From assembly GCA_008632985.1 (NCBI GenBank), contig QPGO01000279.1, positions 1-64,000 of the forward strand: 64,000 bases of DNA, written 5' to 3'. Positions 13,836 through 64,000 of the stretch are shown here, one piece after another (within the stretch, counting starts at the first letter, position 1; every line of letters begins with the position of its first letter). The notes below the pieces were generated by a model. It saw only the letters and a program-made list of their open reading frames with translations, was not told the origin of the DNA and did not search any database. Position numbers and translations under genes: made by a program. Origin of the DNA: Psammoneis japonica (taxonomy: Eukaryota).

Positions 13836-13837
13836 TT

Positions 13838-29276: not shown

Positions 29277-29279
29277 CTC

Positions 29280-35237: not shown

Positions 35238-36274
35238 TTAACATGGGACATTGTCATATTCGTTTGGATGCTGACAGCAAAAAGCTGTGTATGCTCATCT
35301 TCCTGTGGGGCAAGCATGAGATGCAAGCATTGCCCATGGGGTTGTGCAACTCACCAGACATCTTCCAAGAACGCATGTCAGGCTTATTTGAAGATCTGTT
35401 GTTCATTCGAACGCGCTTAGATGACCTTCTTGTTGTGACGAAAGGCACCTGTAAAGATCACCTCAAGAAACTTGAAGAAGCACTGTTGACGGTCCAGAAA
35501 GCAGGACTAAAAGTTAACGCAACTAAGTCGCACTTCTGTCAAACCCAATTAGAACACTTGGGTTGTCTCGTCAACCATGACGGCACACGGCCAATGCCTA
35601 AAAAAGTCAACGCCATTAAACGCATCGCAAAGCCCACAAATGAGCACGACCTGCGCTCATTTGTGGGTGCAGTAAACTGCTGCTGTGGATTGGACATTCT
35701 GAAGTCTTGGCTCCACTAGCATGACTCGTTAGCGAGACTGTTAAGGGAGTGGACGTCCATTGAAGACGAGGCGTTTGAAACCGTTAAACGAATGGCATCG
35801 GATGATGTCTTGTCAACACATCGTGATTTTAACAAACCCTTTGAGACACATGCCAATGCCTCTAAACATCAAATGGGAGCAGTTGTGTCCCAGGATGATA
35901 AACCAATCGCATTCTCCTTTGCCTTCCAAATCCAATCCGGATGTGCAGGACACTCCATTGAGTTGTCCCTCACATGAAGCTTTCAATGCAGACATGCTAG
36001 ACGCCGCACCTCTGCCTGTTAGCTTCAAGCGCATCCAAAAAGAGCAGCAACATGACAAGCGTTTGCTGTCGTGAGCTGAGGACTCATCTGACCACTCCAT
36101 TTGCACGCATCGTGGGGGAGGGTCATCACGACAGTTAACATGTCATAGGACAAAATTGCAGCACCAAAGTCATTGCAGGTTCTGTTGACTGAATGGCACC
36201 ACAAGACACTGTGTCATCCAGGTGAGACACGTTCAGAAACATCTGTTGCCCAGCACTTCTGCTGGCCTGGTGTG

Positions 36275-38900: not shown

Positions 38901-39827
38901 TGTCCACGCGATGTAGACTTCGCGATCGCTCTATGAAGGGTTAAGGGTGTAAGACGTGTTTCACCCAGTTCAGTTGGAGTGAAGACCTTGAGAGCAGCTT
39001 TATTGATGACATCTCGAACTGCTTGTTCATTTGTAGGGTCTTGGGTAAAGGGTACGATGCTCTTCTAAATGACATGCTGCTCACGAAAAACGTCGAGAAA
39101 ATCAGACTTGGGGGACAGTGTATCCTGTGTCGTCAAAAAAATCGTCTAGAGCAGTTCAAGGATCGTGTCAGAATAAAGGTTGTTCAGGTTAGTGCTGACA
39201 TGTTTGTGCTGAGGATGATCTTGAAGGTAGAACTGCATTTCACCGAGAGTGGGCATGACACTCGGTTTCATCAGCATTTCGCTCATGGTGCAAGGCGGGA
39301 AAAAATCCTGGTCGTGCACGCGCAGAATCGTAGGATGTTTCTATGACAGAAAAATTTTGTCAAAGTTGAGCTCAAAAAGTTGTCGGACCAAAAATGGCGG
39401 TGCCGGCTTGTTGCAGCTCACAAAATGATCGAATGAAGAAAGAATCAACAGCACAGAGAAATTGTGACCAGCGCAAGGCCACAACCTGTCAGAGCACCAA
39501 AAGGATGGAGGTAAAAATGGGTCAAAGACTCCTTAAAGACCAGGACAGTGATGCAACACGTGCACCAGTAATCAAGAATGAGAGGATCTTGGATGGAGAT
39601 CCATGAGGCTATCTAAAAAGGGTCTGTCCAGAAATCGTACAGTGCAGTCTGTCCGCATGCCATCATCTGGCAGACTGACAGAGATTCATGATGAGCTTGG
39701 CTGCCTGTGCACTTGGTGCTCAAGCCCTCCACAGCACACAAGGAACCTCTTGTCAACCCCACTGGTCACACATTTGGAAGCCCAACTGCCACAAGTCAAC
39801 CAAATGGCCGATCCAGCCCAGTCACTG

Positions 39828-42800: not shown

Positions 42801-45215
42801 GAAGCAATCCATGATGGTGTTGGCCATGGTCTTCACAGTTTGGCAGCAATGTTCAGCAAAATTCTGATGCTGTTGGTGAGGCTTGCTTTGCCAACTAGAG
42901 ATGAAGAGGGCACGAAGGATGCCAAGAACCTTGTTGCTGATTTCAACTTGAGCAAGGTTGCTGATGAGCTTGGATGGGGCACCATGATTACAAATGTTGT
43001 CTTCGAGCATGTTGACAAATTCCTTGTTGGTTTTGGTTCCGCACACGTCCATGACAAGGGATTCTGTGCTGCAGCAAACAGTGTCCTTCAGAAGAAAGCC
43101 AAAATGAGGGCAGAGTGACTCAAAATCTGGGTCCTTGGGATTGATCTCGCACTCGTGGCATTTGTAGAAAAAATCAGAGGTTGGGAGCAGGCGGTCATCA
43201 AGGATGGAGTCTGTGAGCATGGCATTGTTGACGACATGGCGGTGGCAATGGTTGCCAAACTCATCAAAGAGGTTGGCAGTGGGTCGTCTTGGAGGTCAGA
43301 CATGGCATCATGCCACGTCTCATCATTGGTGAACTGGTGGTTGAGGACAGATGGGTCCCAAGTGTCATCACCAGTGAGGACAACATGTGGCAAGGTGTCC
43401 CATTCAGCATCAGTGTGCAGACATGTGGTGATGTACGGAAGGCCGCCTTTGATGTCAATGGGGATGATGTGTCCATCAATGGTGGTGATGCACTGCAGAC
43501 CATTGGGGACCTTGATGGACCAATCGTTGACGTCATGCTTGCACCACTCAAGTTGACTGCAAGAGTGTGTGGTCTTGCCCTTCCCAGTGCAGGTGCACTG
43601 GTGAAGAATGGCGATGATGGGTCTGCGTTGCATGTGGATGACACCGCTGGCTGTGACAATGGGAATGTTGACAAGTTGATGGTCGTCGATGCCTTGTACG
43701 TCAACCTGGTAACCAGTGCGGGCAATGACATGAACGTCATCACCGGCAACACCACTGTTTGTGCCATGATCCACAAGAGCACCCTTTCAAGTCAAGGTGT
43801 GGTTTGAGGCAGAGTGGATGACATTGTGATTGTTGACACGATGGTGTTTGTGACCCTTGATCTCAATGACAGTGTCGGCATTGCAGAAAGACACAGATTG
43901 GTTGGGTTTCTCGTCAAAGTGGACAGAATTTGCAGATCCGGGGCATCTTGCCAGAGGGGGTGGAAGGAGGCTGTTCAGGTGCCAGCAGACATTGCAAGTC
44001 ACCAGGTGGCAAGGGTTTGCACCTGGTGAGATGAGCCAGGATGGGGTTAGCACCAGCTGAGTTGGCTGCAGCATCGGGTGGTTCAGGGGCCAACATAAGA
44101 TCATGGGTGTTGGCTGACAAGTTGACTTTGCCAATGCTGTCAAGATGGAGGTCGTGCAGGTTGACTGTCATCAAGTCATGACAGTTGCCAGCATGGGCAG
44201 TGCATGAGCCAAGGATGATGACCTTGGTGGACTGAGGCAAGGTGTCCCAGATGTGCTGGTGGTCAGGCGGAATGCAACGCCATTGTTCCCTGGTGAGGGA
44301 GGTGCCACGAGTCTGTGCAGCACAGGCTTAAATGATGGCAATGTTGCTGTTGATGTCAAAGAACATGTCATCATCAGGGTCATTGGGAGCCAGGTCATGT
44401 TTGTAGATGGCGCTGCATGGAGTGCGTGGAGCCGTCTTGGGGGTGAACACACTGTTGTGCTGTGCCGCTGCAGAAAGCAGGAGCCCACAGTGCTGTTTGC
44501 ACGAAAGGCCTCTACCATTCTGTGTGCAAAATTGATTGGCTTGATTCTTTACTGAACGAAGTTCTTCAACAGGATGAATGGCATTCTCAAGCATGACATG
44601 TTTCTGGCCAGCAAAGAAGTGGTCTGCGCTTGGAACAAGAGCCTTGTGCTTGCAAAGCTGGACCTGCCAGTGAAGTGTGAAGGCATGGGTGGATCCTTTC
44701 CAGGTGCCATCGCCAAGGCCAGCAGTGGTGAGACATGTGAGAAGGGTCGAGGACTCCAGGGATGTGTGAGCAGATGCAAGGGCGCACTTGGACAGGTCAC
44801 GATACACTGCTTGAGCATCAGAGGAGCCAACATGTTCATGAACAAGTGCCTTGCCTTTGTCATTCTGCAAGATGCATTCGAATGCAGCGAACATGTGCTT
44901 TTGTTGTTCATCAAACAGGGCCTTGTCCTCAGCTGTAGAGGGCTTGTACATTGGATCGAGAATGCAGTCGACATCCTGGGAGCGGGCCTGTGCGACAACA
45001 GAGGTGTGTCACGTGTGCCACTGTTTGTCTGACTTGAGAATCATGAAGGTGAGTGGACCACATTTGATTCCTCATTTAAAGTCATGCACGGGGTCACGTG
45101 GTTTTGGTGGCAATGAGCCAGGAGTGGGAGCAGATGGCACTGTGCCCATGGAGAGGGATGCCACATGCTCAGGACTAAGATGACAGTCAGTGAACTCCTC
45201 AAGTGTGAACAAGTG
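39828..45215 (-). mobile_element. Second CoDi-type Copia copy, 5'-truncated in gag; 3' LTR 39828-40074
   Basis: Colinear homology with 23750-29276. Retains YVDD, KALYG, VYDIKHDG. Deletion in the INT N-terminus. Confidence 0.93.
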
Positions 45216-45499
45216 GGGGTCTGTCTCTGTGTTGATGTCAAATTGATGCTCACTCTACATTGACATGACACAAGATGCAAACACCACCCAATCAACTCAA
45301 GATGATGCCCCAAATTAGCGCCAAATGTGACTCAACTTCCATGCAGAGATTCACCTGAGAATCCCGTGCAAAATTCAGCTGCATGTTTGCAGGCATGTCA
45401 AAAACACAAAAACCCCCTTTCTTCATTTAACTGACATGCAAATCCTAAAAATTGTGCATGGCATTCAAAAACAAAATTTTCTTGGGTCACTCAGCACTC

Positions 45500-48400
45500 A
45501 ATCCTGGGCCACTCACTTGTTGTTCATCACTTTGTCACTTGCTGTCATTGTCCTTGTGTTGATGCTTTGCTGGCTTCTCTAGGAGATCTTCATTGTGTCC
45601 ATTTTGCCAGCCAATCCTGGGAACCATTGTGTCTGAGAGGCTTCCCACTCTTCCTTCAGATTGCAATCCATGCATTTGTTTGCAAATTCTTCCATGATTG
45701 GATGCAACTTCTTCTCTCAACAGCGGACCAAGGCTTTTGGCAGAAACAGGCCCAAGATGCCACACAAGGTCTGCATGGCCCAAGCCAGTCAAGTGGCGCA
45801 CAAGCACCAACTTGATGTTGATGGTGTGTGCAACAGTGTCACTCCAGTGTCCAGCAGGAAGAGTCTTGGGCTCCAATGTTGTGATGTGTCCTTTCTCACA
45901 TCTGCATGAAATGGAGCACAGCAAACTGACTTCAGCAGCAGTGCAATTCTGCGCAAAATGGCATTGAACCCACCTGCATGTTTTCAACACCAGGATCTTC
46001 ATGGAACTTCCAACTGCCATGGCATTTCTTTCCATTGCCAACAGCAGCCAAACTCCAAACTGTGACAATGATGCCATCATGGCTGATGATGTCCTTGTTG
46101 GTCAAACCTCCCTTGAGCTTTCTTCCAAGCCAAAAGAGCGACCGTGCAAAGAGATCCTCACTCTTCATTTTGACATCTGTGGTCCAGAGGTGTCATGTGA
46201 GCCCATGATCCTTGTTGCGGCTCACCTTCAAGTTTTGCAGCAAATCTTGTTCACACACCACACAAGGATGTGAGAATCCCTGGTGACCACAACAACCAGA
46301 TTGCCAATGTCAATGTTGCTCAATGGGCATCCTCTCTTCAACATGACTGTCACTTCATGATCTCCAAGACTCACAGTGGTGAAAAATGTCTCAATGCCAA
46401 TTGCTTGTGTCACCTCATCCTTGCCAAAGTCCCACTTTGAGAAATCCACTTGTGCCCCCATGTTCAGAGCATTTTGGATTCAAACAAAATGGGCATGAAA
46501 CATCACTCCTGGAACAAATTGGTGATCGACACAGCAAATCTGGCTCACTGCATTGCCACTGCTTCTAAACATGCTCTGGTCGACAAATCCACCAAAATGT
46601 TTGTAGATGATCCAGGCAAATTCAAAACTAAGACAACACAGTTTTGGTTGGTGCCCACTTTGATTCGTGCTGACAACAATCAAATTGCACCCCCAATCAG
46701 GACAGTGTCTTACACCATTGAAGTTCAACAAGAAGATCAACACAAGGCAGTCAAAACTTTGCTGTGTGCATTCAACAAGTGGCCAAGACTTGTTGTGTGT
46801 CCCCCCCCCAGCATTTTATGATGCCGCAAAAATCCAGGCCCATCGCAACCAAGATTCTTTTGCAGTTCCGCTGTTGCACATTTCCCCCAACATGTTGTTT
46901 CATTTCAAGAACAACATCAAGGCCATTGGGAGTGTGAGCACAATTTTCCCTTCCAGTTCCACCACAGGTTGATGCAACATCCTTGTCAATCATGTTGATT
47001 TCAAAACAGCTTGGGTTGCAATCTCCACCACATGTGTGGTGAATCGCACCCCAACTCTCCCTGAAAAATCCCACCTGAATCTTTCCTTCCCAGATCCCCC
47101 AAGTCTCTGGTGCATTCAAGGAGCAGTCCAATGCCAGCAAATCCATCATGTCTGCTTGTGTCTGCAGTCTTGAATCCTTGACTTTCTCAGACATTTGTCC
47201 TTTGACTGACACACTCCAGCCTCCAGTTCCATTCATCCTCATCCGCAGACATCTTCAGTGGGGATTGATCACAACTTGAATGGCCCTCCGGGTTGAGGTG
47301 CTGCCCACGGCTCTCCGGTCCCCCCATGTCTTCACTCGAGCATCTTCTTTCATGCCATCAGCATTTGGACACACAGGACACCCTGGCATCCCTTCTTCCC
47401 AATGCTTGCACACTCAAGTGACCCAATCTTCTGCCAGCTCATCTCTCACCTCCACACAGATGGCAGAAGTGCAGAAGTCCATGTCCCAAATGCAAACAAG
47501 GATGGATCAAGCCTTGGAGGAGCTCTGGAAACAACATTCCCAGGAACTGGAGGCTTTGCACACCATGTTCTCTTAACAACATGCTCAAGACATGGAGAAC
47601 TTGCAGTCTCAGTGCTCTCAACAACTGTCAGGCATGAAAGAGAAAATGAGTCAGATTGTCCAATTGCCACAAGTGAGTCAACAACCTTTGTTTTTCATGA
47701 GAAAATGTCCCAACAACATGGAAACGCCCAGCCATTTGGTTGACCAGAGGAACAAGGATGTGGATTTTTAAAATGGGGTGACTTTGCCACCTCCACCCCC
47801 TCAAACCATCAGGTGCCTCCCCAACATCTCTTTGTCCACCAACGCTTCTCTTGCCCCTGCACATGTCTTTTGCTGAGTGTCCCACTGCAGAAGCTTTTCC
47901 TTCTGATCCAACCCCATTCCTTTGCATTGCTCCAAGCCCCAGTCTTCTTTTTGGAGGAGCGTGGCCCATTGTGAGCAATTTTTGTTTGTCAATGACACTT
48001 CTGTGCAAGCTTGGCAGTCCATTCTAGATGGCAGACATTGCAGTCTGTCAGCTGAACACCGCATTGCCTTTTCTCACCAATGAAAAATCGATTCAGTGAG
48101 AGACATTCTTCAACCAAAGTTAGTTTGCCACATGAGATTGTCAGTTTGCCATGCCAATGGTTGCAAATTTGACAAGCAAGGTGGAGATGTTTTTGAATGC
48201 TGTCAGATTGCCAATGAAATTCAGGCTGATGCAGCAGGTGTTTCTGAGGTCTGTTTGGATGCCACACAACATGATGTGTTGTCTGTGTGCAGGTGAACTG
48301 TTCACAATTTGATCAGTCAAGGCCATGCCACCTTTTCATGCAGCTCTGCACCTTTTGCTGCTTGCCACAAGCCCGGAGGCACAGCTCTTTTGTCTGGCAA

Positions 48401-51400
48401 CTCCATTTCCACCAGATGTTGTGGTCAAGAATTCAATCCATGACATGCAGGCTTCTTTGAAACCACAAGTGATGACACTCACTTGGAATCCATTGGTCCA
48501 ATGCTTGACAGCCAAGATGTTTTATCCGGGTCACAAGCCCTCCTTGATCTTGACACTTCTGATCACGAGTTGGCCAAGAAGCTTGACAGGGATCTTTTGC
48601 AGTTCTCCTTGGCAGCTGCTAAGAAGTGCGGGTTGCACCTTGAACCTGAGTGTTCCTCCATTAAACTTGCTCAACTTCAATGCAGAGTTTGTGTCCCAAG
48701 TCATGTCATCTCCATGATGCGCACCTGGATTGATCACATCAGCCATGTTCAAAACATGAGAAGCAAGACAGACAGTGCCTTTGCCATTCCAGAAACCTTT
48801 GAGGAGTGTCAGGCAGCCCTTCATGAAGCTCAGGCTGAATGTCAACAAGTGGCAGTAGCCAGTGCAGTGCACAGAGAATGTGACATGGCAGTGAAGATTG
48901 CAGCATTGGATCTGGAAGGCACTGAGGCCTCCAAACACAAGGCTGTGATCCTGCAAAACATTTAGAAGGCAGAAGAAATAAAATAATCAAAAAAATAATT
49001 TGATCAAAGCCGACAGCAATGTGAGAGTCAACAGTGTTCAAGCACCATGGAATCCAGCTGCCAATCCTAAAGAGTGCGGCAATTGGGTGACTGTTGATGC
49101 CCCACATGATGTTGCTGCTGCCCTTGGACTTTACAACTAGAAGCATTTTGGACAGGCTCAAGGTGCCCCTCCCACAGTCCCCCCCATCAGTGGATCTGGG
49201 GTGTGTTGGCAACACCATTTTTGCAGACCCAATCCTCAAAGGCAAGTGTGACACAACCCAACTCGACAAAGCAACTTCCCATTTTATTCACCATCTTAAG
49301 TGTTGATCCCCTGTGTCAGTTTCCTTTTTCCTCAATGAAGTAAAGCTGGTGGGAAAGATCAAATCTTGGAAAGAGTCTGCATCTGCTTCCATCAAGTCGG
49401 GGCTGCACTTGGGCCATTGGAAGGCCACGCACATGCAGACAAGGTTTGACCTGTTGAATTTTGCTCTTTGTTGGAGATGTTCTTGCAACTGCTGGAAAGA
49501 CATCATCAATGTCATGACATTGAAAGAGGCTGGAAACAATGAGATTCACCTGTTGCATGTCATGTGTACAAAGCCAACTTTCAACTAATTTCCAGCATCA
49601 CATGGCAATCATTGGTGCAGAATGTGGAGCAACGTAAGTTGCACAACCCTTGTGTGTGTGGCACCTGCCCATTCTTGAATGCAAATGCTCTGGTTTATCT
49701 TGAGGAATTGATGCTTGAAATCAGGAGTGGGGTTCCCAGGAAGACTGCCATTGACAGCAATGATGATTGCACCTCATGCTGCAATTGCAACATTCTGGCC
49801 TTAACTGCCATTGAGAGCTGCAGTCATGGAATGCCAAAGGAGGTCACCCAGACCACTGTCACCACCCTGCATCAGGTGCGACATTGGTTGAAAACTGCAA
49901 TTGGACTGTCCCTGACATCATGCTTGCACTCCGCTGAATTTCCCATTTATGGCACTGGACAGGGCAGTGGAAATTCACCCTTTTGTTGGAATCAAATTTG
50001 CAATGGCCTTTCTCATGTCTTTGACAAACATGCCCACAGCACGTTTTTTGAGTTCCCAAACTGCTCTGTGTCACTGCCAATCTACAACCAAGGATGTGTG
50101 GACAACATTTCAAACAAGCAAACCACTTCACCGCCCCCCCTCAACCTTCTGTGTTGGAAGTTGACCTCAAAATGCAGGAGGACAACCAGTTGTGGTGTGA
50201 CCTCCTTGGTGCAGTGGGTGACAAACTTGAACCACCAAAATGGCTGAAAATGTGTCAATTGCAACATTGTCAATGCATGCATGGAGATGAGGATCACCAT
50301 TGTTGGTAAAACACTGGTGGCCTGCAACTCAGCCATTGGCCCATTCCTTGCATGAGATTGTTGGACATTGCAAGGCTCTGGCGGGCACCCAGAAGACTCA
50401 TTGCAAGGTGCTCAAGCAGAAGAGTGATGATGTTGCATTGTTCTTTGGTTGTGTCCTCTTGATCATCATGAAGCACCTGTGCCCATTGTTTCATGTGTTG
50501 GTTGTCGTCTGTGACTTGCACTCTTCCAAGTGCACGTTTTGCCCCCAAAGAGCTGATTGAGGTGCAGCAAAAAGCCATGAGAGAATTGTTTTTGCAAAAT
50601 ACGGATGCAATTGGAACACCAAAAGGGATGTTCTCTTTGGTCCTCACACACTTGGTGGTGGAGGATGCAGGTCATTAAATGTTGAATGTTGGTTGTCATC
50701 TGTGACTTGCACTCTTCCAAGTGCACATTTCACCCCAAAAGAGCTGCTTGAGATGCAGCAAAAAGCCACGAGAATTGTTCTTGCAAAATGTGGATGCAAT
50801 TGGAACACCAAAAGGGATGTCCTCTTTGGTCCTTACACACTTGGTGGTGGAGGATGCAGGTCATTAGATGTCAAACAGGGTGTCAGTCAAGTGCTTCGAT
50901 TTCTCACTCACTGGCATGGCAAATTGGTCATCCTCAAGCTTTGTCTTGCATTGCAGTGTCTTGGATTCAGTTCCATCTTGGCACAGGCATCAGTTTCTTG
51001 AAGGACGTTCACTCCAAGCTGCCTCACTCTGAGCCCAAGTGGTTTGTGTCCCTTTGAGCATTTTCATCTGAAGTGAACCCATGGTTTGATTTGGAGGAAG
51101 CTGGTGTGCGTCCTCCACAATGTGACAACGATCAACACATCATGGACATGGCATTGGAATCTGGGATTTTCTCAGAGAGATTTGATGGGTGAATTGTTGC
51201 CAATTGCACCTCAATGTCCTTGCCATTTCTAACATCACATTGCCAGATGGTTGTTTTCTTGATTGACACAAATTTCTAGGCCAGCAATCACTCCTGAGCA
51301 ACCAATCTACTTTGAACCCAGCAGAACAGGCTCTCCCATCTACTTGAGCTTGGAAACAATGGCAGTGAGCCTGCAAGCTGTCACACAGCAGTGACACTTT

Positions 51401-53308
51401 AGAGTTGAGAGGTCTTTTGGGTTCTTGGGTGGTTCCAGCTGCCAACAATTGCATGGAGTTCCCTGCACATTGCGAATCACATGAAAAGCATTTGTGCATT
51501 GGGTCACCGGAAGGATTTCACATGTTTCCTTTGACCCACGGCACACCCCTGCTGACATTGGTCTTCTGGAAGTGGTCACTGACATGTCTCCATCAGCTTT
51601 TCCAGTTGTGGTTGAAGCTGTCCAGGATGGAAAATGGTGCATTTGCTCTGAGGGCACCTCAGTCGAACTCTCTCCTGCAGCCCCCCTGCCCTCAGATTTC
51701 CAGCAATGGCTGATGTCTCCACCAACATGGGAATCTTTGCTGTTTGCTGACATCTTTTTACATGCATCGACATTTGAAATGGCACAGCGTTTGAAGTTTT
51801 TTTGGGTTGAGGCAGCAAGTGATGGTTTGGTCATTGGTTTTGCAGCTGCATTCCGATGGACGCTCACCATTGATGGCTTGATTTTGGTCAATTGTGCCGG
51901 CCCTGCATTTGGGTTTTGTTCTTCTTCACACCACATGGAAGCATGCAATGTGCTCTCCCTTCCTCAATTTGTGCTCAGGGTCTTAGAACATTGCCAGACT
52001 GCTCTCCCTCAGGCATGGACTTACATTGTGACAATTCTGCCATCATCCAAAATGTTGCAAATCTCCAGGCACCTTTTCCCATCTCTGAGGAGGACAGCCC
52101 TTCTCTGAAGCTCATCTTTGCTGCCACCATAGACACCATGTCGCTAACACAGCATCAGCTGATTGGGACACCTTGAATGAAATCTTCCATTCAGTCATGT
52201 CCCTTGCCAAATCTTCACCCACAGAGGCACTGTGCACTCAGGTCAACATGCACTGGATCAAGGGACACCAGGATGACCACATCCCCTGTGAATCATTGTC
52301 TCTTCCAGCACAAATGACTGTCAGAGTGGATTGAATTGCAGGCCAACAACATCAATGGAGATTTTCTGGCAGCACTTCGGTGGCTCCTTGGATGCCACAA
52401 TGTTCTGTGAACCTTGTGGCTGACAGTTCTTCCGTGAGTTCTAAATTCAAGTCTTTTCTGACATGAAGCTTCAAGCCCATCCCTTGTCCTGAGTGTAAAA
52501 GAAAAATCTGGATGGTCTGACAAGGTGCTCCACTCCATTGACAGGCCTGTCCACTCCAAACTCTTGTCTTGGAACATCTGCAAGAAAGTCATCACTGTCA
52601 AGTTCATTCAAGTCCTTTTGCCTGCCAACAAGACAGTCCACTGGTGCAATCCTGTCAGGCTGGATGTGTCTCCTCCCATGTGTGATTTCTTGCTGCTGGT
52701 GTTAGAATCTTGGTTCCATGAAGACCTGGTTTGTGCCAATCAGCTTCATCATAAAGCACTGGAAATTTTTTACTCTCAAGAGCAGATTTGTTGGCAGCAC
52801 CTGTTCAATGGTCATTTCTCTTCTCATTCAAAAAAGGCGCACCTCAAGCATTTGATGATGGTTGCACATTTAGACCCTGACAAGTCCAGAGTGGAGTGGG
52901 CGGCCACAGTTGGCACTTGTGTTTGGTGCCAATGCCAGGAATTGTGGGATCTGCGTGACACTGCAATTCATTGGTGTGATTCAGAAACCAGCAAATCAGT
53001 GCAATGTCATGATGTGGAAGCAGAAGTGAAGGCCATCTGCTCAAGGTCTGGTGGCTGCTTGGCAAAGGATTGTGCAGAACCCTTTGATTTCGTTGACAAG
53101 CACTCAACTCATTCTGTGCACAGGCTCTGCAACTGGTTGGCGATTGTGAGACCTGTGTTCAAATCAAGCATTGGAGATGCAAAATGGCTGATTGCCACAT
53201 GCCCCTGCCACACTTTAGTGTGCTGGGGTGTGTGGGTTAGCTTGTTGCCAGATTTGCAGGGCAGAAGTGCAGCAGAACCTTAAAAATGGATTCTGGGTTT
53301 TGTTTTGA
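45500..53308 (+). mobile_element. Highly decayed LINE with APE-RT-RNase H (Ambal-like)
   Basis: APE start at 48130 (HANG..ADAAGVSE..D); RT IYGTGQGSGNSP and GCVDN; RNase H ASDG..GP..SSHHME..WIKGHQD; C-terminal QEQICWQHLFNGHFS. Left boundary approximate. Confidence 0.8.
50497..50880 (+). repeat. Tandem duplication, 2 x about 190 bp, inside the LINE
   Basis: TCTGTGACTTGCACTCTTCCAAGTGCAC at about 50508 and 50699. Confidence 0.85.
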
Positions 53309-55167
53309 CTTCAATGGACACACAGTCTTTCCCATGGCACCACTTCTGCACACTTGGGAGGCAAATGTCCACATTTCTTTTGTTTCTTTTTAAGTTTCTG
53401 GTGCATCTCACATTTTGACACACATTTTTGCATGTTTTCGTGCAAAGGAAGACCACACCACAAGTGTTGTGAGATTGTCTCTTCAGCTCCATTCATGCAG
53501 GCTGCAGAAGGTGCACGTGGCGCCAATCTCTCACCACTTTTTGTTGTGTCTTCAGTGCAACATTTTTGTCCTTGTGACATGCAAGCATCCAGTCTCACTC
53601 ACCTCCACAAAATGTTTTTGTGTGACATGTTGCATCCAACAATTTGGAGAGAACATCTTTGTCCTGTTTGTGTTCAGTGTTAAGAACTTTGCGCATTGAT
53701 GGAAAAACATTGTTGCAAGATTTAGGTGAAACTTCAATTGCTGGTTCTTCATTGCTGGGGTTTTCCACAGGTTCCATTTTCTTCACAGTAAATTGGCTGA
53801 TGGCATCTGCAACTGCATTTGCCTTGCCCTTGAGGCAAATTGTTTTGGGACTGCATTCTTCTGTTGTCAGTTGCCAATGCATGACTTTGTCCATTGTGAA
53901 GCTCTTGTGGGTGAGATTCTTGTGATCCATCTGAGTGCAAATCTGTTGGCCAAACAGAACATTCCAGAATTCCTTGGGTGCTTCCATTGTGGACAGAAGT
54001 TCTTTTCCATTGCAGTGCAGCACGTCTGCACTCCATTTAAGTTGCAACTTTAGAAGGCAACAGGTCCATCATTCTGCATTGTCACTGCTCCCAGTTGAGA
54101 ATCACTTGCATCAGTGTGTGCCTCAAAGGGAATGTCACGATTCGGGTGTGGTGGTGATGCATCTTTCAATGTGATTCACTTCACATTTTTGAAGGCTTTT
54201 TGTTCTGTGCTTGTCCATTGCCACTTGGTCTCAGGTGAGGTGAGTTTGACCAAAGGAGCAAGAACACAAGAGATCATTGAGGCCACACATCTCAATGACA
54301 ATTTATCACACCAATGAAATGCCACAAACTTTTCTGTGAGTTGCAGGTGTTGCAATTGCTTGAATCACTTCCACTTTCCCAGGCATTGGTCTGATGCCAT
54401 TTCCTGTGATGTGAAAGCCAGACAATCTGCCTCTGGCTTTGCAAAAATGACTTTCCAGCATTGGCCTTCAATCCAGTTTGTTTGATCTTTGACGTCACCT
54501 TTTGTCAGGCACAGTGTGTCATCAACACAAGTCCTGACAAACTCCAATCACATGCTCCTGAAAAACATCCAGAGCTCCACAGATTCCCATTGGGAGTTTG
54601 CAGCACTCACATTTGCCCCACGGCATCACGACAATGCACAAATGACATGCATGTGGTGTCAATTCAACATGGCAGTGTCCCATGTTCAAATCCAGTGAGG
54701 TTCCATGCATGAAGCCTTCTAGTTTCTGCAGCATGTCTTGAAATTTTGGGAAAGGACATGGAGGGCATGTCAACCATTCATCAAGCTCATGGAAGTTGGA
54801 CAGGAACCAAAGCCTGCCATTTTTTTGGGGCTGAACAAAGGGTGGAGCTGCCCATTCAGAGTGGTTTATTTTTCTTAACTCAATGCTCTTAACTTGCACA
54901 GTCTTTCAACTTCCTTTCAAGCAGTCACCTCTGAGCTTGCGGAATGGGAAATGGTTTCATGTGATGTGGTTTTGCACCAGATTTCACTGCAAAATCAACC
55001 GGTTTTCTGGTCCACTTGCCTGCAGAACTGCTGTGAAAAAAGGTTCAAATCTTTTTAGGAAGAAGTTAACTTGCTTCTGCTCTTCTGGGGTTTTAGACAA
55101 GTTGCCGCAGCTGTCACATTGTCAAGGTTGGCAACATGATGATCACTGTCAAGGATTTTGTTGATCT

Positions 55168-55559
55168 TGTCACATCAAGTGCAGTGGGCATCCCTGCCGT
55201 AGCCGCCGATGATGCTGCTTTCCTGCGTCTGTAGGCTGTCCGTAGCGACGCTGATCCCGCAGAAGCGCGCACCAGGAAACGCGACTCTCAGCATGAGACC
55301 CACGAAGGGCTACGGGAGATCCATACGACTGAGACCGGCGCGACTGGCCATCGCGTACGTGACTCACCTTGTATGAAGGGACTGCGTAGGATGTATGTAC
55401 GCAGTACCGAGTATGATTGGTTCCGCGCAGGGACTGAAGACGCGGCACTGTATGTCTTACTGTCGCGCGTACACATGCAGTCTTATAATTTACGCAACAC
55501 ACGAATTATCAACCCTCTTTACGACTTAGTGCTTAGACCCTATTTTTGCATAGGGCACA
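55168..55559. mobile_element. Solo-LTR-like insertion with unmutated composition
   Basis: TG..CA ends. Interrupts Gypsy pol between PR and RT. Rich in TpA and CpG. No clean TSD. Confidence 0.6.
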
Positions 55560-55842
55560 AGACTGTTTGTGGCATGCGGTTTCTCAATGTGATTGGCTGT
55601 CAGCGTGAACACTTCAGTGTTAAAGAGTGCATCAACATTGTTCATGGGTGTGGGGGCATTCTCCCATTTGATTTTTTCATTTGCAAAGTCCAACAACATG
55701 ATTCCAAGACTGCTCATTGAGTCATGTCCCATGATCACATCATGTTGACTTGAAGAAGCAGTGCTGTCATCTGCTTGTGCTGTCTTCTCAACCCTTTTGT
55801 GTTTGTCTAATTCAGGCAATGAGAACTGCATTGTACAGTGAC

Positions 55843-56872
55843 ACAATTCTGCCTTGGTTTCACGGCCACAACCCCTGCTTGTTTTTCTACGTGAGCCCTG
55901 GTGCTGATGTCACCTTTTTCAGGTGGTGTGATGATGACTCTTGCCTGCCCTTTCTGAGTGCATTTTTTATTGACATGCCTTTGTTCGGTCATCACAAGCA
56001 ATCTCACGTATTTGAAAGCAACTGGCATCAACCTCTTTTGGTTGGTGTGCTTGTCATTCTTGTTGGCAATTTTTTCCTTGGTTGCAATTTTTTCTATGCA
56101 AGTTTCAGCACACAAATTCCATGTGTTCCAAAAGTCATTTCCAGATGGCCGACTGGCCAAACTACAAACTGTTCTCTGTCCATGCCTCTCAAGTGTCAAT
56201 GACTCCCCTTCCATCTGTTGCCAATCTGAGTTCTCTGCTTTATGTGGTGGACAATCTTCTGTCATTGATGCTCCCAGAAGTCTGCATTTGAGATCAACTC
56301 AGCATGATTTGGCCATTCTTCTATTTGCTGACAATTCTGCACAAGTTTCAGTGCAAATTCTACATCTCTTGAAAGTGGTTTCAGATGATCCACTTGCCAA
56401 TCCATGGATTGTTTTCTGTTCACACCTCTCAGGTCTTAATGACTCCTTTTGTCCACTGCCAATTTAAGTTCTCTGCTTCATGTGGTGAACAATCTTTTGT
56501 CAATGCCACCTGCAGAACTTGAACTCAAGACTTCAGCATGGGTTGACCAGTTTTTCCTGTCCCTTTGCTCTCTCTTTGGTTGCACCCATTCAAGATTGCT
56601 TGTTTCATCCTTGCAACCAGATCCTGTCCCAAGCAGATGTCCTGATGGCAGCATTGAGTGCTTCAAATTTGATGTCTGGTTTTGTGGGTCCTGTTTTTGC
56701 TGCTGCCAGCTATTTCTGGTGGGCACAACAGACTTGTGGTGTCATTTTTGGCTGATTGCAACACATTCCTGCTGCACTTTATCAATGCACTGGGGGTGCA
56801 AGTTAGCTTGTTGCCAAAGTTGCAGGGTGGAAGTGCAGCAGCACTTTTAAATGCAGAATTTTGGTTTTGTTT
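55843..56872. mobile_element. About 1-kb insertion flanked by 16-bp direct repeats (possible 5'-truncated non-LTR element)
   Basis: TGCATTGTACAGTGAC (55827-55842) / TGCATTGTGCAGTGAC (56873-56888). Right end resembles 53185-53308. Confidence 0.65.
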
Positions 56873-57851
56873 TGCATTGTGCAGTGACTGTCAGTCATGA
56901 AGAGTTTGCCCTTGGTTTCCCAAGTTTGGGTGGCGGATTTCTTCATTCTCAATTTCTGCATGAATTTGTGCAAAATCATGGTTGACAATGTTCCACTGTC
57001 AAGAAGAATGCACAAGGGCTCATTTTTCTCCTTTCCCAAAGAAGCATTCATGTGAGCAACAACTGTTGGACTGGTGTGTGAGTTGCTTTGGCATTTTTTC
57101 TGGGCTTCCTGACACCTGGTGACATGCACAAGACTCCTCTGCAGGAGCAAGTCATTCTTCAGAATTGCTGCACAATGTTTTTTCAAACTGACAATTTTCC
57201 TTGCTGAGTGAATCAGAATTGTGTTTCTTGGGCTTGTTCTTGTGTTTGGAATTCTTCACATTGGGACTTGTGGTGAGTGACATGTTGATTTCCTGAGTGA
57301 TGATGGCATTCAATTCTTCTTTTGGAGGGGTGTTTTTAGTGTTGCGATGTGACCACATGCGACTGCCATTTGAACAATGCCTTTTCATGTCATGCTCAAC
57401 ATTCTTCCAACATTCCTTGGCTAAAAGCAGCACTTGTCCATATTGTGAGTGGACTTTTTGCAACAATTGCACCACTCATTGGACTCGGAACATTTGGCAC
57501 CAGATTGGCGATCACCTTGCGGGGTCGACTGATGGCTCCTGCAGCAGGGCATGAGGTTGCACATGATGTCACAAAGAGCTCATCCTCATCCAAACTCTGC
57601 AAGGCTCAAAAGGAGGGCAGCAATTGAAATCATCATTGACCCCCTGTGTCCAGGTGGCAATTTCCCAGATCTTCATGGTCTTTGGTTTCTTCAAATCACA
57701 TTGCAGGTGTCGTTTCTGGTTGCAAAGTAATTTCTTGGGGAAGACATGAGTGGTGAGGTGTTGCGGGCATTTTTCGAAGGCTCTTTCATCACATTTGGAC
57801 TCCAGGTTTGCTGCCTTGTTCTCAAAAACTTGAAGAGCATCTCCCTGCAAC

Positions 57852-58995
57852 CTCAGTTTGGTTTCACCATGTAATTTCTCAAAATTCCCTGGGATTAACT
57901 TACCACCTTTTACCCTGTTTTTCCACGGGAAGGGTGAATTCCCGGGGAATCGCCACGAATTGCCAATCTTGTCTACACATGCTAAATGCATGAATAAAAA
58001 ACATTGGCAATTCCCCGTGCTTCCCCTCTCATGCATTTCTGCGAATTCTACATGCCGGCATGTGCAGAACCACACACCATCAACCGACCGCAACAAAAAT
58101 GGTCAACACACCATGGAGCATTCGCATCCCATTTATGATGGCTCTTGTCAAACAACAATGAGACCAGTCAATCCAGTGAGTGAGATTATGATCAACAGTG
58201 TAAAATAAAAAATGAACAGAACTGTGACAGATGATGTTGAGCAGACAACTGGAGCATTGATCCAAAAGAGTGATTCTAAATTATCCACTTCATTCTGCAC
58301 ATAAGATGTGTCAATTGGAAGAACAAACATGGCCATTCACTCCGCCATGTTTTCATCAGCAACACATGGTTCTGCTTTTGCCTTGGACTTTACCACAAAT
58401 GCTGCATGGCTTGCATTTGTGACCTGTTGTTGTGCAGCTGCAAATGCAAACTGTGAGGCATCTAGAGTGAAGGCTAAGGCAAAAGCAGAACCTCACAAGG
58501 CCAATAAAAATTGTGGGGGATTGTGTGGTCATGCTTGTTCTTTCCTTTGACCCATCTCATTTGCAGAACACAGTGTGTCATGTGTTCCTTCTTGTGTGGC
58601 ATGGTCACAAATGCAAACCACAAGGGCTCTAGAGCAAAGGATGAGGCAAAAATAGAACCGCACATGAGCAACATTGACATGGCTGATTTAACGGTAAAGT
58701 TTGTTCTTTCCTTGCTCTGCCACAAGAAGCTGCTTTTGTGTCGATGCACTGGTCATTGTCGTCATCTTGCATCATGTCGCGTCGGTTGTCAGGGGGATAA
58801 AAGCACAACCACCTGACTGTAATTACCGCACATTACCACATTCCATTTGTTTTGTGTTCCCCTCCCCTGAGCCCTTTCAGGCATTCTTTCCCACAAAATT
58901 ACCCTCATTTCCCGGGTTTTCCCCAAACGGGCAAGGTGACTCCCCCTCACCCTGGCCATTTTGGGGAATCCCCAAAAGGGCAAAACCAAACTAAG
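57852..58995. mobile_element. Non-autonomous TIR element with 8-bp TSD (hAT-like)
   Basis: TSD CCTGCAAC (57844-57851 / 58996-59003). 13-bp TIR CT(C/T)AGTTTGGTTT. Removing it restores gag VLLQGDAL. Confidence 0.85.
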
Positions 58996-59699
58996 CCTGC
59001 AACAACACATGCACAATTTGGCACTTGTCAGCTTGGCTCTGTTTTGCATTCTGTCCAACCTGAAGTTTGGCAAAGGTCTTCAAAAATTTGATGAACTTGG
59101 GAACTCCTTGCTTGTTGTGACACTTGATGTTGATCATGCAAGTGCAACTTTTTCATCTCCAGGGTCAAAACACTGCTCCATGTTGAGACACTAGCTTGGC
59201 TTGAGTGCTTTTGGCTTGGAAATCAATTCCAATGGAACAGGACCAATTTTCTCCTGCTTGACGCAGATCTGGGCATCCATCACTTGGGGTGAAAGCTTCA
59301 TTCTTGTGGTTTTACCTTCTGTGGAGTGCATGCACAATGCACTCCTGTGCTTGAAGAAGGAGTGCAAATGAAAGCAGAACAAATCACAAAAAGTGAAAAT
59401 TGTGAGATTGGGCTTCTTTGCTCTCTGCAATTTTGAGATTCTCCAAAGGTGTTCTCAACAGCCTGAAGCTTTGGCACTGCTTCTACAGACTGAAGGCCTT
59501 TTGGAGAATCTGATCATGACAACAGATTATCCGGATGCAATCAACATTGACGCCTCACATGTCAACATCATCTGTTGATGGCACCTGTGCAATTTTCAAC
59601 ATTGGATCAACTCTGTGTGATTGATCCATCCTTTGTGTGCATCCACAACTGTGACACGATTGACACATGGCACAACATGTGTGACTGTGAACAAGCACA

Positions 59700-62600
59700 T
59701 GACAATGCATGCTGCAGACCATCTCAGAAAGCTTGAGAAAACATTCACATGGCTCGAGCAAGCGGGATTGAAGGTTAACACCAAAAAGTCATTTTTTGCC
59801 AAGCCAGAGGCAAATTGTCTGGGTTTTCACATCACTCAAAATTGCATCAGACCAAAACCTGAGAAAGTGGAGGCGATTCAAGCAATTGCAATGCCTGCCA
59901 CTCACTGGGAATTGTTGTGTTTCATTGGCATTGTCAATTGTTGTGGAGACATGTGATCCAATGCCTTTGGCCAAACTCACCTCATTTAAGGTTAAGTGGC
60001 AATGGACAAGCACAGAACAAAAAGCCTCCAAAAATGTGAAGTGGATCATGTCAAAAGATGTGTCACTGTCACACCCAAATTTCAACATTCCCTTTGTGAT
60101 CCATGCTGACACAAGCAATTCTCTGCCAGGAACAGTCACAATGCAGAGAACAGCAGACCTGTTGCCTTCTACAGCCACAAGTTAAATGGAGCACAGACGT
60201 GCCACACTGCAATGGAAAAAGAATTTGTGTCCACAGTGGAGACACTTGAGGAATTCCAGAATGTGCTGTTTGGCCAACAGATTAACATGCACATGGATCA
60301 CAAGAATTTCACCCAAGAGAACTTCACAATGGAGAGACTCATGCATTGGCAACCAACAACAGAAGAATGCAGCTCCAAAACAATTTACCTCAAGGGCAAA
60401 GTGCATGTTGTTGCAGACACGATCAGCCCAATCACTGTGAAGAAAAGAGAACCTGTGGAAAACCTCAGCAATGAAGAACCAGCTGACAAAAGTTGCACCT
60501 GAACCCCATGACAATGTCTTTCCATTAACACAAAAAGTTCTCGACACTAAACACAAACAGGATGAAGACATTTTCCCCAAATTGTTGGACGCAACATGTC
60601 ATGCCAAAACTTTTTGTTGAGGCAAGCAAAACCAGATGCTCATCTGTCACAAGGATGAAATCATTGCACCAAAGACATCACAATGAGTGGTGACAGATTG
60701 CCACCATTTGCACCTTCTGCACCATGGCATAAATGGAACTGAAGAGACAATCTCACAACACTTGTGGTGGTCCATCTCATGTGAAGATGTGCAAAGATGT
60801 GTTGAAATGTGAGACATGCCAGAAATTTAAAAACAAACAAAAGAAATGTGGGCATTTGCCTCCTGAGTTCACAGAACCAGTGCCATGGGAAAGACCACAC
60901 ATGGATCTTGTTGGAACATGCAAGATGCATCGGAAGGACAAAAAGAAACCCCCAGCTCTGAAATGTCTGACAATGACAGATCCAGCAACAGCACAGTTTG
61001 AAGCAGCAGAAACTCCAAACATGGAATCCATGACCATTGCTAGATTGTTAGAGAGAATGTGGTTCTTGAGCAGATGTCCTTGGCCATTGTTGGTCACTTG
61101 TGATTGTGGAAGTGAATTTGTTGGATGTCAATCTCTAGAACTGTGGTTCACGATTGTTGTGGCATTAAATGCAAGCCCACAACCATGCAAAATCCACAAG
61201 CAAATGCCACAATTGAGCACATGCATCAAGTGCTGGGCAACATGCTGCATGCATTTGATTTACAAAATGCACCCCTGGATGCTCAGAGTCCTTTTGAGGG
61301 AATGCTGTCAGCAGCAGCCTTTGCACAGTGTGTTTGACATGTCATGCCACTGTGCAAGCTGCACCAGAAGAATTGGTCTTTAAAATGCTAGAGACATTGC
61401 CAACTGGAAGTTTGTTCAGAAACAAACACAAGATGTTTTAAATGCAAACAATGCCAGAGAGAATGCATGGTGCACTCCATGCACGTGCAGAGTGGGAGAA
61501 AAGATCTTGCTAGAAAAAGACTCTAAAAAATTAGAATGGCCTTGTGCTGGGCCATGCATCATGACAACTGCACACACTCAATGGCAAAGTGCAGATCAAA
61601 TGTGGTGATCTCATGCATTGACACTGTCAACATCTCCAACAAATGATTCCATTTGACGAATGACTCCAATGTGCAATTGGGAAGGGGAGTGCAGCATGCA
61701 TTGTCAAGTGGGTGAAATTGTGCATGTTCACAATTGCACAATGTTGTGTGTCAATCGCACCACAATCATGGATGCATGCAAAGATCAAAAAACCAGATCT
61801 AAATTTAAAGTGCCATCACTCCTCTGCCAGCCAGTCTGACCTGGCTGACCCACAGCCCCAGTGCACAGTTAAGTGTGGCAGGAGCTTGTGCGGCATTAGC
61901 CAGAATGGGCATCACCAGAAGGTGACACCCCACCAAGACAACTGAAAAAGAATGATTCACAAGAGGGATTTATTGCGCGCTTGCTGATGACAGCCACAGA
62001 AGGCACACCACAACTGCAACAGACAATTGCATTCAGATGGGTTTTTAAAACAGTCAACAAAAGGAGCCTTGAAGGCAAGACAAGCAGGTCATTGGAGAAA
62101 ATGTTTGTTGCACACAGAAGCAGCACTGAGTCTTGCACAGAAAAGCGGATGGCAGCAGCAAACCAACGACAATCAAATGGCACCACAGGATGACTTGTGT
62201 TCTTGCTGAAAAGGGCTGAAACAGAAGCAGCACATTCACCTCATAGAGTGAAGTGCTTGATTGCATGGCAGAGAAAAAAGTGGGGTTGAAGACCGATTGG
62301 CAAGGACAAAAGTAGTCTGGATGAGTGACACGTAGATGGTCAGTGGTGTCACATTGACACAATGCCAGATCTTGCGCAGAACAGCCGATGAGAGCAGCAA
62401 ATGGATGACAATCAAATGACTCTGAAGGATGACTGACATTCTTGCTGAAAAGGAGAAGCAGCACTTTCACCACAAAGAGTGAAGGACTTGATTGCATGGC
62501 AAGGAAAAGAAGTGGCATTGAAAACCAATTTGCAAGGATAAAAACAGTCTGGGGAAGTCACATGCAGATCATCAGCAGCATCTGCACATCCTGGCAGAAT

Positions 62601-63141
62601 TTGCACTAGAACCTGTGCAGAAAATTTTCTGAGACAACAGAAAATTACGAGAAACAACAACCAGCACACTGGCCAACAGGCCGTGACAGTCATCATTTTC
62701 CACTGATGAACATTGCTCATCATGTTGTAATGAGGATGTGCCATTGGTGAACAAGGACAGCATGGGCTTGTTGGAGCCAAATCAACACAAGAAGGTGCGC
62801 AGCAACCTGTGTACAAGCTGAGGGCATGCAGCTGATGTCGAAAAAGTGTGTGCAAAGATCAGATGGATCACACAGAAAAAATTGATCGGATGTCTAAAAT
62901 TACAAAAACACCATGGATGGACAATGTTGACACACAAGATGTCAATGTCGATTGCATCGGGACAATCTGTTGTCACGTTTAGATCACACGAAAGGCCTTT
63001 GCTCTGTAGAAGCAGTGCAAATGCTTCAGGCCATTGAGAACTCTTTTGGTAAATGGCAAAATCACAGTGTAAAATCTGATCTTATAATTTCCACTTTTAG
63101 TGATTTGTTCTACTTTCATTTGCACTCATTCTTCAAGCACA
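59700..63141 (+). mobile_element. Decayed Gypsy 3' half (RT end, RH, INT) plus long 3' LTR (about 61690-63141); same family as 53310-59690
   Basis: GLKVNTKKS, HADTS, DHKNF, PWERPHMDLVG, NPQANA. PPT GGGAAGGGGAG. 62840-63141 matches 59346-59660 inverted. LTR has internal repeats of about 240 bp. Confidence 0.85.
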
Positions 63142-63249
63142 GTGCAAAAGGTCAATTGACATTGCAAAACAAAACTTTTTTAACTCTCATGACTTGTTTT
63201 TCTGATGTGGCAGCTGTCTCCACTGTTGCCTGCAATCTTTCAAGCTTTT

Positions 63250-63670
63250 GATTTTTTCCCCTCATGCAACGTGCATCTTATCTTGTGAAGCAGCAGGGAC
63301 AGTGTGTTCATGTGACCGTGTTTCTGCCTCAGTGCGGCTTCTGGGGACCAGCCCTTCCTCTGCATTGGTCACACTCAGTGTTGCGCACATTTTAATCTTT
63401 TTTTCTCATGCAACATGCATCTTGTCTTGTGAAGCACCAGTGACAGCATGCTCAAGTGTTTCTGCCACAGTGTGGCTTCTGGTGACCAGCCCTTTCCCTG
63501 CATTGGTCACACTCAGTGTTGCGCACATTTTAATCTTTTTTTCTCATGCAACATGCATCTTGTCTTGTGAAGCACCAGTGACAGCATGCTCAAGTGTTTC
63601 TGCCACAGTGTGGCTTCTGGTGACCAGCCCTTTCCCTGCATTGGTCACACTCAGTGCTGTGCACAGAAAT
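63250..63670. repeat. Tandem repeat, about 3 x 138 bp
   Basis: TTTTCTCATGCAACATGCATCTTGTC at 63401 and 63539. Diverged first unit. Confidence 0.9.
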
Positions 63671-64000
63671 TTTGCATGTGTGACATCCTCCTGCAGATTT
63701 CCTGTGCACAGCCATTTGCAAGCTTAACATGGGCCGACAGAGTTGCACTTTCTCACAGGGCAATTTTTCATCCAGATGCATGACTGGCAACATGCGATGA
63801 TTCACCAAAGGTTTTGGCTGCATTTTTTTTTGGTTGGCTGTGGGGAAGAATGGTGAGTTGTTGACAAACAAGATGATGCAGTGCAAGACCAACATTTGAA
63901 CCACAGCCAAACACTCCCCAGGAGCTGCCGCAACCTTGGCCATTGCATGTGCCAACGTGATGTTCATCAGTGGGGAAAACAAATTGTTTGATGTTCCCAA

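Follow-up and report, generated by a model that had tools for sequence, protein, structure and literature searches.

Natural adenine hypermutation of DNA is almost undescribed, and the published account, a preprint on Bigelowiella natans (Mettrop et al., bioRxiv, 10.64898/2026.01.13.699255), stops at the dinucleotide: two viral insertions acquired 231 de novo mutations, of which 230 were A>G or T>C, all of them at TpA, and mutation is ongoing in some lines at about 10−7 to 10−6 per site per generation. In the sections considered here, the preprint proposes an ADAT2-like deaminase as the agent and reports that TpA-depleted genes are enriched in reverse-transcriptase and DDE domains, and those sections of its main text hold no flanking-base or CpG analysis. 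A literature search found no account of TpA>TpG/CpA hypermutation beyond this 2026 preprint. Here we describe the loss of TpA, and the bases that surround it, in a 64,000-nucleotide stretch of the genome of Psammoneis japonica (assembly GCA_008632985.1, contig QPGO01000279.1, positions 1 to 64,000 of the forward strand; hereafter the window), which by Pfam, tblastn and self-BLAST is eukaryotic DNA composed of nearly nothing but transposon debris, from Gypsy and Copia long terminal repeat (LTR) retrotransposons. In these repeats TA has been changed to TG or CA on both strands, preferentially where a pyrimidine follows the mutated A.

As far as the available sections of the preprint go, the resemblance to B. 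natans extends to the dinucleotide and its products (TpG or CpA, on both strands), to the coupling of TpA loss with an excess of CpA and TpG, and to the hitting of foreign or selfish DNA in sharply bounded domains. The two cases differ in target and degree, since in B. natans the process was measured in a pair of single-copy viral insertions that are mildly depleted (Rho TpA 0.45), whereas here high-copy LTR retrotransposons have been taken close to saturation, with observed/expected (o/e) ratios for TA of 0.09–0.3 over about 60 kb. Repeat-induced point mutation (RIP) of Neurospora and other fungi is likewise directed at repeats, acts in place and destroys transposon reading frames by dinucleotide-specific transitions, but its direction and chemistry are the opposite, CpA becoming TpA. 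The indices used to recognize RIP accordingly point the other way: TpA/ApT is 0.16–0.22 and (CpA+TpG)/(ApC+GpT) is 1.72–1.91, as against thresholds of at least 0.89 and at most 1.03 in an excerpt of a study on Rhizoctonia (PMC7884421).

Among the adenosine deaminases, TadA and ADAT2-ADAT3, together with DNA base editors derived from TadA, act on an A preceded by U or T, as does the process described here. The A34 that they edit in tRNA follows U33, and the loop recognized by TadA reads UACG. ADAR hyper-editing also leaves clusters of A>G changes in repeats with U 5′ of the edited A; ADAR, however, acts on RNA with a loose 5′ preference that accepts A as well and with a preference for a 3′ G, whereas here the need for a 5′ T is 17- to 50-fold, a pyrimidine is favoured on the 3′ side, and the changes have become fixed in DNA on both strands. 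A-to-I editing in fungi has mRNA and not DNA as its target, and its preferred +1 base is a purine. What fungal editing has in common with the present process is the T (U) at −1, which is preferred in the sexual stage of Fusarium and Neurospora among base preferences from −2 to +4 (excerpt of PMC10041177). BjADAT2 does act on DNA when placed in Escherichia coli, but the contexts given in the part of that report considered here are GAA for A and TCG for C (PMC10354150), unlike the TAY (Y, pyrimidine; R, purine; N, any base) found in this window; the preference of ADAR for U 5′ of the edited A is also taken up in the discussion of the B. natans preprint (10.64898/2026.01.13.699255, in part).

Sequence context of the lost TA

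The o/e ratio of TA is 0.09–0.31 in most 4-kb blocks of the window, with higher values at 16–20 kb (0.58) and at 32–36 kb (0.42), where a tandem duplicate lies, and it is 0.43 or less in 55 of the 64 one-kb bins; in the 4-kb blocks CA and TG are raised to 1.4–2.0. At 45000–64000 the ratios are 0.09–0.19 for TA, 0.16–0.28 for CG and 1.6–2.0 for CA/TG. The repeats overall stand at 0.21 for TA, 1.62 for TG+CA and 0.49 for CG, as compared to 0.56 for TA and 0.93 for CG in a single-copy control. The context of the loss was read from the following elements.

45000–64000, no strand assigned: near-saturated TA loss in old, degraded Gypsy-type debris (composition, weak Pfam matches, tblastn)
55195–55560, no strand assigned: unmutated island with sharp edges inside the saturated region, holding most RTAY of the region
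17259–20572, no strand assigned: single-copy control with near-normal TA and CG and no NTAN bias
8528–11134, minus strand: Gypsy pol frame with RVT_1 and RT_RNaseH (Pfam), used for codon polarisation
7419–7579, plus strand: left copy of a direct repeat of 161–163 bp flanking the Gypsy body (self-BLAST)
12538–12698, plus strand: right copy of the same direct repeat (self-BLAST)
13766–15289, plus strand: second Gypsy fragment, with RNase H and an integrase zinc-binding domain (Pfam), whose conserved tyrosine codons were used
23725–29277, plus strand (sense): Copia copy 2, of a high-copy family, 81–87% identical to copy 1 (self-BLAST)
39827–45221, minus strand (sense): Copia copy 1, with RVT_2 at 40740–42098 (Pfam, self-BLAST)
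31625–33885, plus strand: tandem duplicate unit A, an RVT_1 fragment of Gypsy type that shares 97.9% identity with unit B
33884–36145, plus strand: tandem duplicate unit B

The TA dinucleotides that survive at 45000–64000, 204 in number (o/e 0.146), are unevenly spread over their contexts. YTAR accounts for 94 of them (46%; TTAA 38, TTAG 23, CTAA 20, CTAG 13) against 23.9% expected from an N-YR-N baseline (binomial p = 4.8×10−12), RTAY for 15 (7%; GTAC 7, GTAT 5, ATAC 2, ATAT 1) against 25.1% expected (p = 1.2×10−10), and the mixed contexts for 95 against 51.1% expected (p = 0.21). Uniform depletion over the 16 NTAN tetramers is thus rejected (G = 91.9, df 15, p = 4.5×10−13 with the YR baseline; G = 99.5 with a mononucleotide baseline), while in the single-copy control the uniform model is not rejected (p = 0.43), YTAR and RTAY numbering 26 and 40 of 130 in a ranking that is flat or slightly opposite (chi-squared against 45000–64000 = 41.6, p = 9×10−10). 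Among the pyrimidine-purine steps of the saturated region, the share remaining as TA is lowest for AYRT (0.003) and highest for TYRA (0.103), an order reversed in the control (ATAT 0.224, TTAA 0.068). An earlier note on this DNA, made by eye, had described the surviving TA as lying mostly in YTAR, with GTAC, ATAC and GTAT almost absent, and had read this as a TAY target preference. The scarcity of the RTAY tetramers holds, and 10 of the 15 that remain sit in the bin 55000–55999, which contains the unmutated island; when this bin is left out the bias is stronger (YTAR 87, RTAY 5 and mixed 80, of 172). YTAR, on the other hand, is a plurality over the full range and makes up more than half only within 45000–54999, the 10 kb nearest to saturation (YTAR 41 and RTAY 2, of 72), so that "mostly" is too strong for the region as a whole. 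The other repeats of the window lean in the same direction (YTAR 236 and RTAY 71, of 669 TA).

When survival is modelled as the product of one factor for the base 3′ of the top-strand A and one for the base 3′ of the bottom-strand A, multiplicative per strand, the relative survival at 45–64 kb is 1 for TAA, 0.73 for TAG, 0.46 for TAC and 0.30 for TAT (residual p = 0.48), and a model with two classes, purine and pyrimidine, accounts for 68 of the 92 G units. Over all repeats there is a weaker effect of the +2 base, at which A is protective (relative survival C 0.56, G 0.72 and T 0.57; likelihood-ratio test G = 105.5, p = 1×10−22), TAAA and TAGA being the best-surviving contexts; among retained tyrosine codons 9 of 21 have A at this position, a trend that agrees in numbers too small to count. 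A pyrimidine at +1 and a purine at −2 predict identical NTAN survival and differ in which strand is mutated, so survivor counts cannot separate the two.

The mutated strand can be told at codons for tyrosine (Tyr), where a change to cysteine (Cys, TGY) means that the A of the sense strand was mutated, its +1 base always being a pyrimidine, and a change to histidine (His, CAY) means that the A of the opposite strand was mutated, its +1 base being the complement of the base before the codon. As outgroup we took 240 non-hypermutated homologues (120 of Gypsy pol and 120 of the Copia polyprotein), which have normal Tyr content (minimum 2.6–3.0%), and we scored an ancestral TAY wherever 20 or more homologues cover the position and 60% or more of these have Tyr, counting states shared by the tandem units once. 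The 175 conserved Tyr codons found in this way are now Cys in 75 cases, His in 44, Tyr in 21, arginine (Arg) in 1 and other in 34. The share of His depends on the preceding base as follows.

Preceding A (opposite-strand TAT): 17/32 = 0.53
Preceding G (opposite-strand TAC): 19/47 = 0.40
Preceding C (opposite-strand TAG): 6/35 = 0.17
Preceding T (opposite-strand TAA): 2/26 = 0.08

The difference between preceding purines and pyrimidines is significant overall (Fisher p = 4.2×10−5), for Gypsy alone (2.5×10−4) and for Copia alone (0.029), and remains so in total when concordant Copia states are counted once (p = 1.3×10−4). Relative rates derived from His:Cys, which give the context of these polarised A>G events, are 1.13 for TAT, 0.86 for TAC, 0.26 for TAG and 0.13 for TAA, and the Tyr codons that have been retained follow a pyrimidine in 15 of 21 cases and a purine in 6. 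Where a purine precedes, that is at RTAY, Cys and His are equally frequent (37:36); the changes are therefore not confined to the sense strand, as they would be in ADAR-type editing, both strands having been hit equally. The need for a 5′ T is equally evident in these proteins. A>G at codon position 2 has affected 72 of 170 TAY codons (42%) and only 1 of 117 CAY, 3 of 119 AAY and 5 of 260 GAY codons, a 17- to 50-fold requirement that confines A>G or T>C mutation almost wholly to TpA, and Tyr is the least retained residue (21/170, 12%). Codons hit twice (CGY) number 1 of 141, a rarity that fits a strict need for a 5′ T because the first hit destroys the TA of the second strand. In the Gypsy pol frame the consequence is that Tyr makes up 0.7% of residues and Cys 4.8%, as compared to 3.6% and 1.8% in its 120 homologues, and that 12 of 22 conserved Tyr are now Cys, 3 are His and 4 have been kept. 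When the two Copia copies are compared at the 42 paired conserved-Tyr codons at which each reads Tyr, Cys or His, they disagree at 20 (His/Cys 11, Cys/Tyr 5, Tyr/His 4), so the hits are independent.

Mismatches between repeats show when these changes arose. In pairs aligned by self-BLAST, namely the Copia pair, the tandem duplicate and smaller pairs, 82–96% of mismatches are transitions. The tandem duplicate has 47 mismatches, of which 45 are transitions, with 9 TA events and 25 CpG events against a background of 1/584 and 1/486 at purines preceded by A or G; the diverged share of sites is 7% for TA strands, 11% for CpG and 0.2% for background. Sorted by the context of the mutated A, the TA events that postdate duplication number TAT 5/17, TAC 1/19, TAG 2/32 and TAA 1/57 (TAT vs. 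the rest, 5/17 vs. 4/108, p = 0.002; pyrimidine vs. purine, 6/36 vs. 3/89, p = 0.017). In the direct repeat that flanks the Gypsy body all 7 mismatched positions lie within TA or CG, and the 3 TA events have the contexts TAT, TAC and TAC. This divergence at TA, which followed duplication at the level of DNA and in the tandem duplicate and flanking repeat is about 35 times the background, indicates that mutation took place in situ. The proposed TAY preference is thus supported by three independent lines (the survivor model, the outgroup Tyr codons and the clean events of the tandem duplicate), and it is not absolute, as the earlier note had also said, 3 of the 9 TA events in the tandem duplicate being in TAR. 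That note had further regarded a TAY bias as a fingerprint of TadA, whose target is UAC followed by G. The T 5′ of the mutated A agrees with this; the C and then G on the 3′ side do not, for in none of the data sets is TAT a poorer target than TAC (His share 0.53 vs. 0.40, survival 0.30 vs. 0.46), and the attribution to TadA is not established. Special depletion of TACG was likewise not seen, TACG having the highest TA/(TA+TG) among TACN (0.236), a ratio whose denominator is confounded by CpG loss.

Other comparisons of the repeat pairs were less informative. The Copia pair contains 122 adjacent CA/TG double mismatches, each representing one ancestral TA or CG that changed in different ways in copy 1 and copy 2; by our own estimate about 75 of them would be expected from CpG decay and the rest from TA hits on opposite strands. 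A test polarised over all 11 pairs (TAA 23/236, TAG 18/165, TAC 35/125, TAT 29/78, p = 7×10−10) was withdrawn as confounded, because background G>A creates new TA, which inflates the "mutated" share in contexts with few survivors and biases the test towards the hypothesis. The asymmetry of products, NTGN against NCAN, was uninformative, with NCAA exceeding NTGA in all contexts and in the control.

CpG decay, copy number and other features of the window

In the clustered bins TpA depletion is coupled to the excess of CpA and TpG, part of which is supplied by CpG decay, and over the 64 one-kb bins the o/e ratios of TA and CG are correlated (Spearman 0.68, p = 5×10−10). At 45000–64000 the CG fraction of pyrimidine-purine steps nevertheless varies little with context (0.033–0.067), and since CpG decay has no 5′-T bias we read it as a second process separate from TpA mutation in the same domains, presumably the loss of methylated C. 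In the transposon proteins Arg is the second least retained residue (106/247, 43%), in line with what CpG decay would do to CGN codons. The CpG>CpA events of the tandem duplicate, few in number, are most frequent before T (CGT 13/72, CGA 4/64, CGC 5/54, CGG 3/35); the CGT excess corresponds to ACG on the deaminated strand.

Copy number was judged from the depth of contigs of a single sequencing run, which is the probable source of the assembly and so is not independent of it, with 80% likeness required on 16200–36199. Depth is 600–80000 over transposons, including 5000–18000 in the region of Copia copy 2, as compared to 32 over 17259–20572, which is covered by one identical contig of 3313 bases. 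TA mutation is therefore restricted to selfish, high-copy DNA and spares the single-copy 3.3 kb; the one exception is the high-copy segment 16501–17258, which has escaped mutation. This exceptional segment adjoins the single-copy stretch, and there is a 45-base inverted repeat at 16966–17010 and 17234–17278. Variants at 2560 places in 16200–36199 comprise 473 A>G, 595 T>C, 482 G>A, 543 C>T and 467 transversions, in a summary that carries no sequence context and covers a region outside 45000–64000. The depth of 80862 at 28873–29539, against 32, would at face value mean roughly 2500 copies, and this segment probably represents the LTR of the Copia family. Within the single-copy stretch a run of open frames without a Pfam family occupies 17479–20394 on the plus strand, and the open reading frame at 18891–19829 had no homologue among 5.8 billion proteins. 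For these frames the Atlas offered no more than weak leads to fungi (score 0.89), and Atlas searches as a whole pointed weakly to fungi and oomycetes.

The unmutated island stands out sharply, with 23 TA and 33 CG at 55201–55600 as compared to 0–4 TA per 200 bases around it. No repeat partner for 55195–55560 was found within the window, and neither Rfam nor tRNA scans, run over the whole window and over the island at 55.1–55.7 kb, returned a match; the island could have been inserted recently or be an element that is protected. The identification of the remaining debris rests on these features.

53598–54068 (minus strand), 59621–60499 (plus strand) and 60733–61380 (plus strand), within 45000–64000: weak Pfam matches to reverse transcriptase, RNase H and integrase
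53–55 kb (minus strand) and 59–61.6 kb (plus strand): tblastn coverage by Gypsy homologues
1–714, plus strand: Copia RVT_2 (Pfam)
42102–43295: protein search leading to Copia relatives

The window holds 251 stop-to-stop frames of at least 90 residues, many of them overlapping on opposite strands, and one long example, 23179–25797 on the plus strand (873 residues), is without a family. Because the loss of TA removes TAA and TAG stops, it inflates the number of spurious reading frames on both strands, which is a trap for gene prediction.

Competing explanations and the meaning of the TpA process

The explanation that we favour is that a process acting on the chromosome in place changes A:T to G:C almost only at TpA (TA to TG or CA), equally on both strands, at a rate governed by the base that follows the mutated A on its 3′ side (T ≥ C > G > A), pyrimidine exceeding purine about four- to eight-fold, with a weaker +2 effect in which A protects. 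YTAR, and above all TTAA, would then be a slow context on both strands and survive longest, while RTAY, and above all ATAT, would be a fast context on both strands and be lost first. The 5′-T requirement, the direction, the +1 preference, the strand symmetry, the action in place and the sparing of the single-copy stretch are observations made in this window. The agent would be an adenine deaminase that acts on DNA, converting A to inosine, which is read as G, and that is directed to silenced repeats, the process being of the same kind as the TpA hypermutation of B. natans. Taken as a whole, from the TpA mutation of repeats with its +1 pyrimidine preference to a DNA adenine deaminase of the B. 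natans kind, this explanation seems to us a fairly probable one.

Several observations weigh against it. The deaminase is a deduction, and to our knowledge the preferred TAT is absent from natural ADAT substrates and A34 anticodons, no A34 tRNA having U35. The segment 16501–17258 has a depth in the thousands and yet normal TA (o/e 0.83–0.96) and CG (1.07–1.37), so that "repeat" does not always mean "mutated". The order of contexts is also less clean outside the saturated region: in the repeats at 1–45 kb the survival of TAC (0.75) approaches that of TAG (0.94) and TAT alone stands out (0.37), a model in which only T matters does better than the purine/pyrimidine model (G 135.5 vs. 94.3), and a residual misfit (p = 0.0015) reflects an excess of ATAA/TTAT and of GTAG, which, like the +2 effect, might come from A-rich tracts of recent origin, to name one possibility. 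In the tandem duplicate TAC (1/19) is no higher than TAG (2/32). TA/TG mismatches in the Copia pair are no commoner (0.055) than background mismatches at purines (0.042–0.056), the direction test on pairs is weak (26 vs. 12 when scored by purine and pyrimidine, p = 0.034; 30 vs. 20 by four ranks, p = 0.20), and the Tyr test for Copia alone falls to p = 0.07 when concordant states are counted once.

Alternatively, one could envision chemistry directed at thymine, in which the T of R-T-A would be modified or oxidised, for instance by a JBP/TET-type dioxygenase that yields 5-hydroxymethyl- or 5-formyluracil, and would then pair wrongly with G, giving T>C. Oxidised thymine can indeed mispair with G. 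Since every A>G is also a T>C when read from the opposite strand, the survivor, Tyr-codon and NAY tests are symmetric to such a re-reading, the context simply being read as a purine 5′ of T with the same resulting pattern, and the sequence offers no argument against it; the published account of TpA hypermutation, in the sections considered here, favours adenine deamination, by argument alone (10.64898/2026.01.13.699255), and we regard the thymine route as unlikely. Still less probable is that copies arrive already mutated through editing of RNA or cDNA during retrotransposition, with ADAR-like or APOBEC-like timing. Retroelements are the main targets, as this would require, and the independent patterns of the two Copia copies would be expected also if each insertion were edited separately, but editing of RNA or of one cDNA strand gives one kind of change, and the equal numbers of Cys and His at RTAY exclude sense-RNA or single-cDNA-strand editing as the sole source. 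The neighbours of ADAR sites, with a 3′ G favoured and a 3′ U disfavoured, are moreover the opposite of the pattern here, and the tandem duplicate and flanking repeat diverged at TA after they were duplicated. In B. natans, too, viral DNA that is already resident and silent is mutated in situ, according to the sections of the preprint considered (10.64898/2026.01.13.699255).

It could also be held that there is no target preference, the survivors reflecting ancestral composition, young insertions or new TA in A/T-rich contexts. That 10 of 15 RTAY come from one unmutated island shows that differences in age do shape the counts, the good survival of TAAA and TAGA could reflect A-rich tracts, and some of the signal from the repeat pairs is an artefact of background mismatches. 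We nonetheless consider this very improbable, as the outgroup Tyr test is independent of survivor composition and yields the same ranking for both transposon families, which are unrelated, the single-copy control ranks the contexts oppositely, and removal of the island-bearing bin strengthens the bias (RTAY 5/172). The mirror image of the favoured model, in which the rate is set by a purine at −2 (R-T-A) and not by the +1 base, is mathematically equivalent for survivor data, and the residual excess of TTAT/ATAA hints at slight protection by T at −2. It predicts more His than Cys after a pyrimidine, however, and the reverse was observed (Cys 38, His 8, p = 9×10−6), while 11 of 14 ATAA/TTAT events in the repeat pairs go in the direction predicted by the +1 model. 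As the main effect the mirror model is refuted, and we give it next to no credence, although a minor contribution of the −2 base may exist.

On the evidence of composition and context, then, the TpA process in this window appears to belong with the B. natans type of hypermutation, to which it adds the +1 pyrimidine motif, saturation on LTR retrotransposons and co-located CpG decay. The saturation of LTR retrotransposons widens the known targets beyond integrated viruses. The motif amounts to a testable specification for the enzyme, as any candidate must give TAT ≥ TAC > TAG > TAA on DNA, an order that argues against ADAR-like preferences and is no simple mirror of the tRNA substrate of TadA. 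It also provides a sharper detector for use in other genomes, namely loss of RTAY, retention of TTAA, and Tyr-to-Cys and Tyr-to-His changes in transposon proteins, and a DNA adenine deaminase of natural origin whose context is defined would be of interest for base editing. For the organism itself we suggest, tentatively and with less confidence than the explanation as a whole, that it may run a repeat-directed defence by DNA adenine deamination (a "reverse RIP"), specific for T-A-pyrimidine, about as fast as methyl-CpG decay and operating in domains of CpG methylation, which would drive its transposons towards CA/TG as their only common pyrimidine-purine step. If this is true, the TAY signature (T ≥ C > G > A) would be a biochemical fingerprint by which a natural DNA adenine deaminase could be identified.

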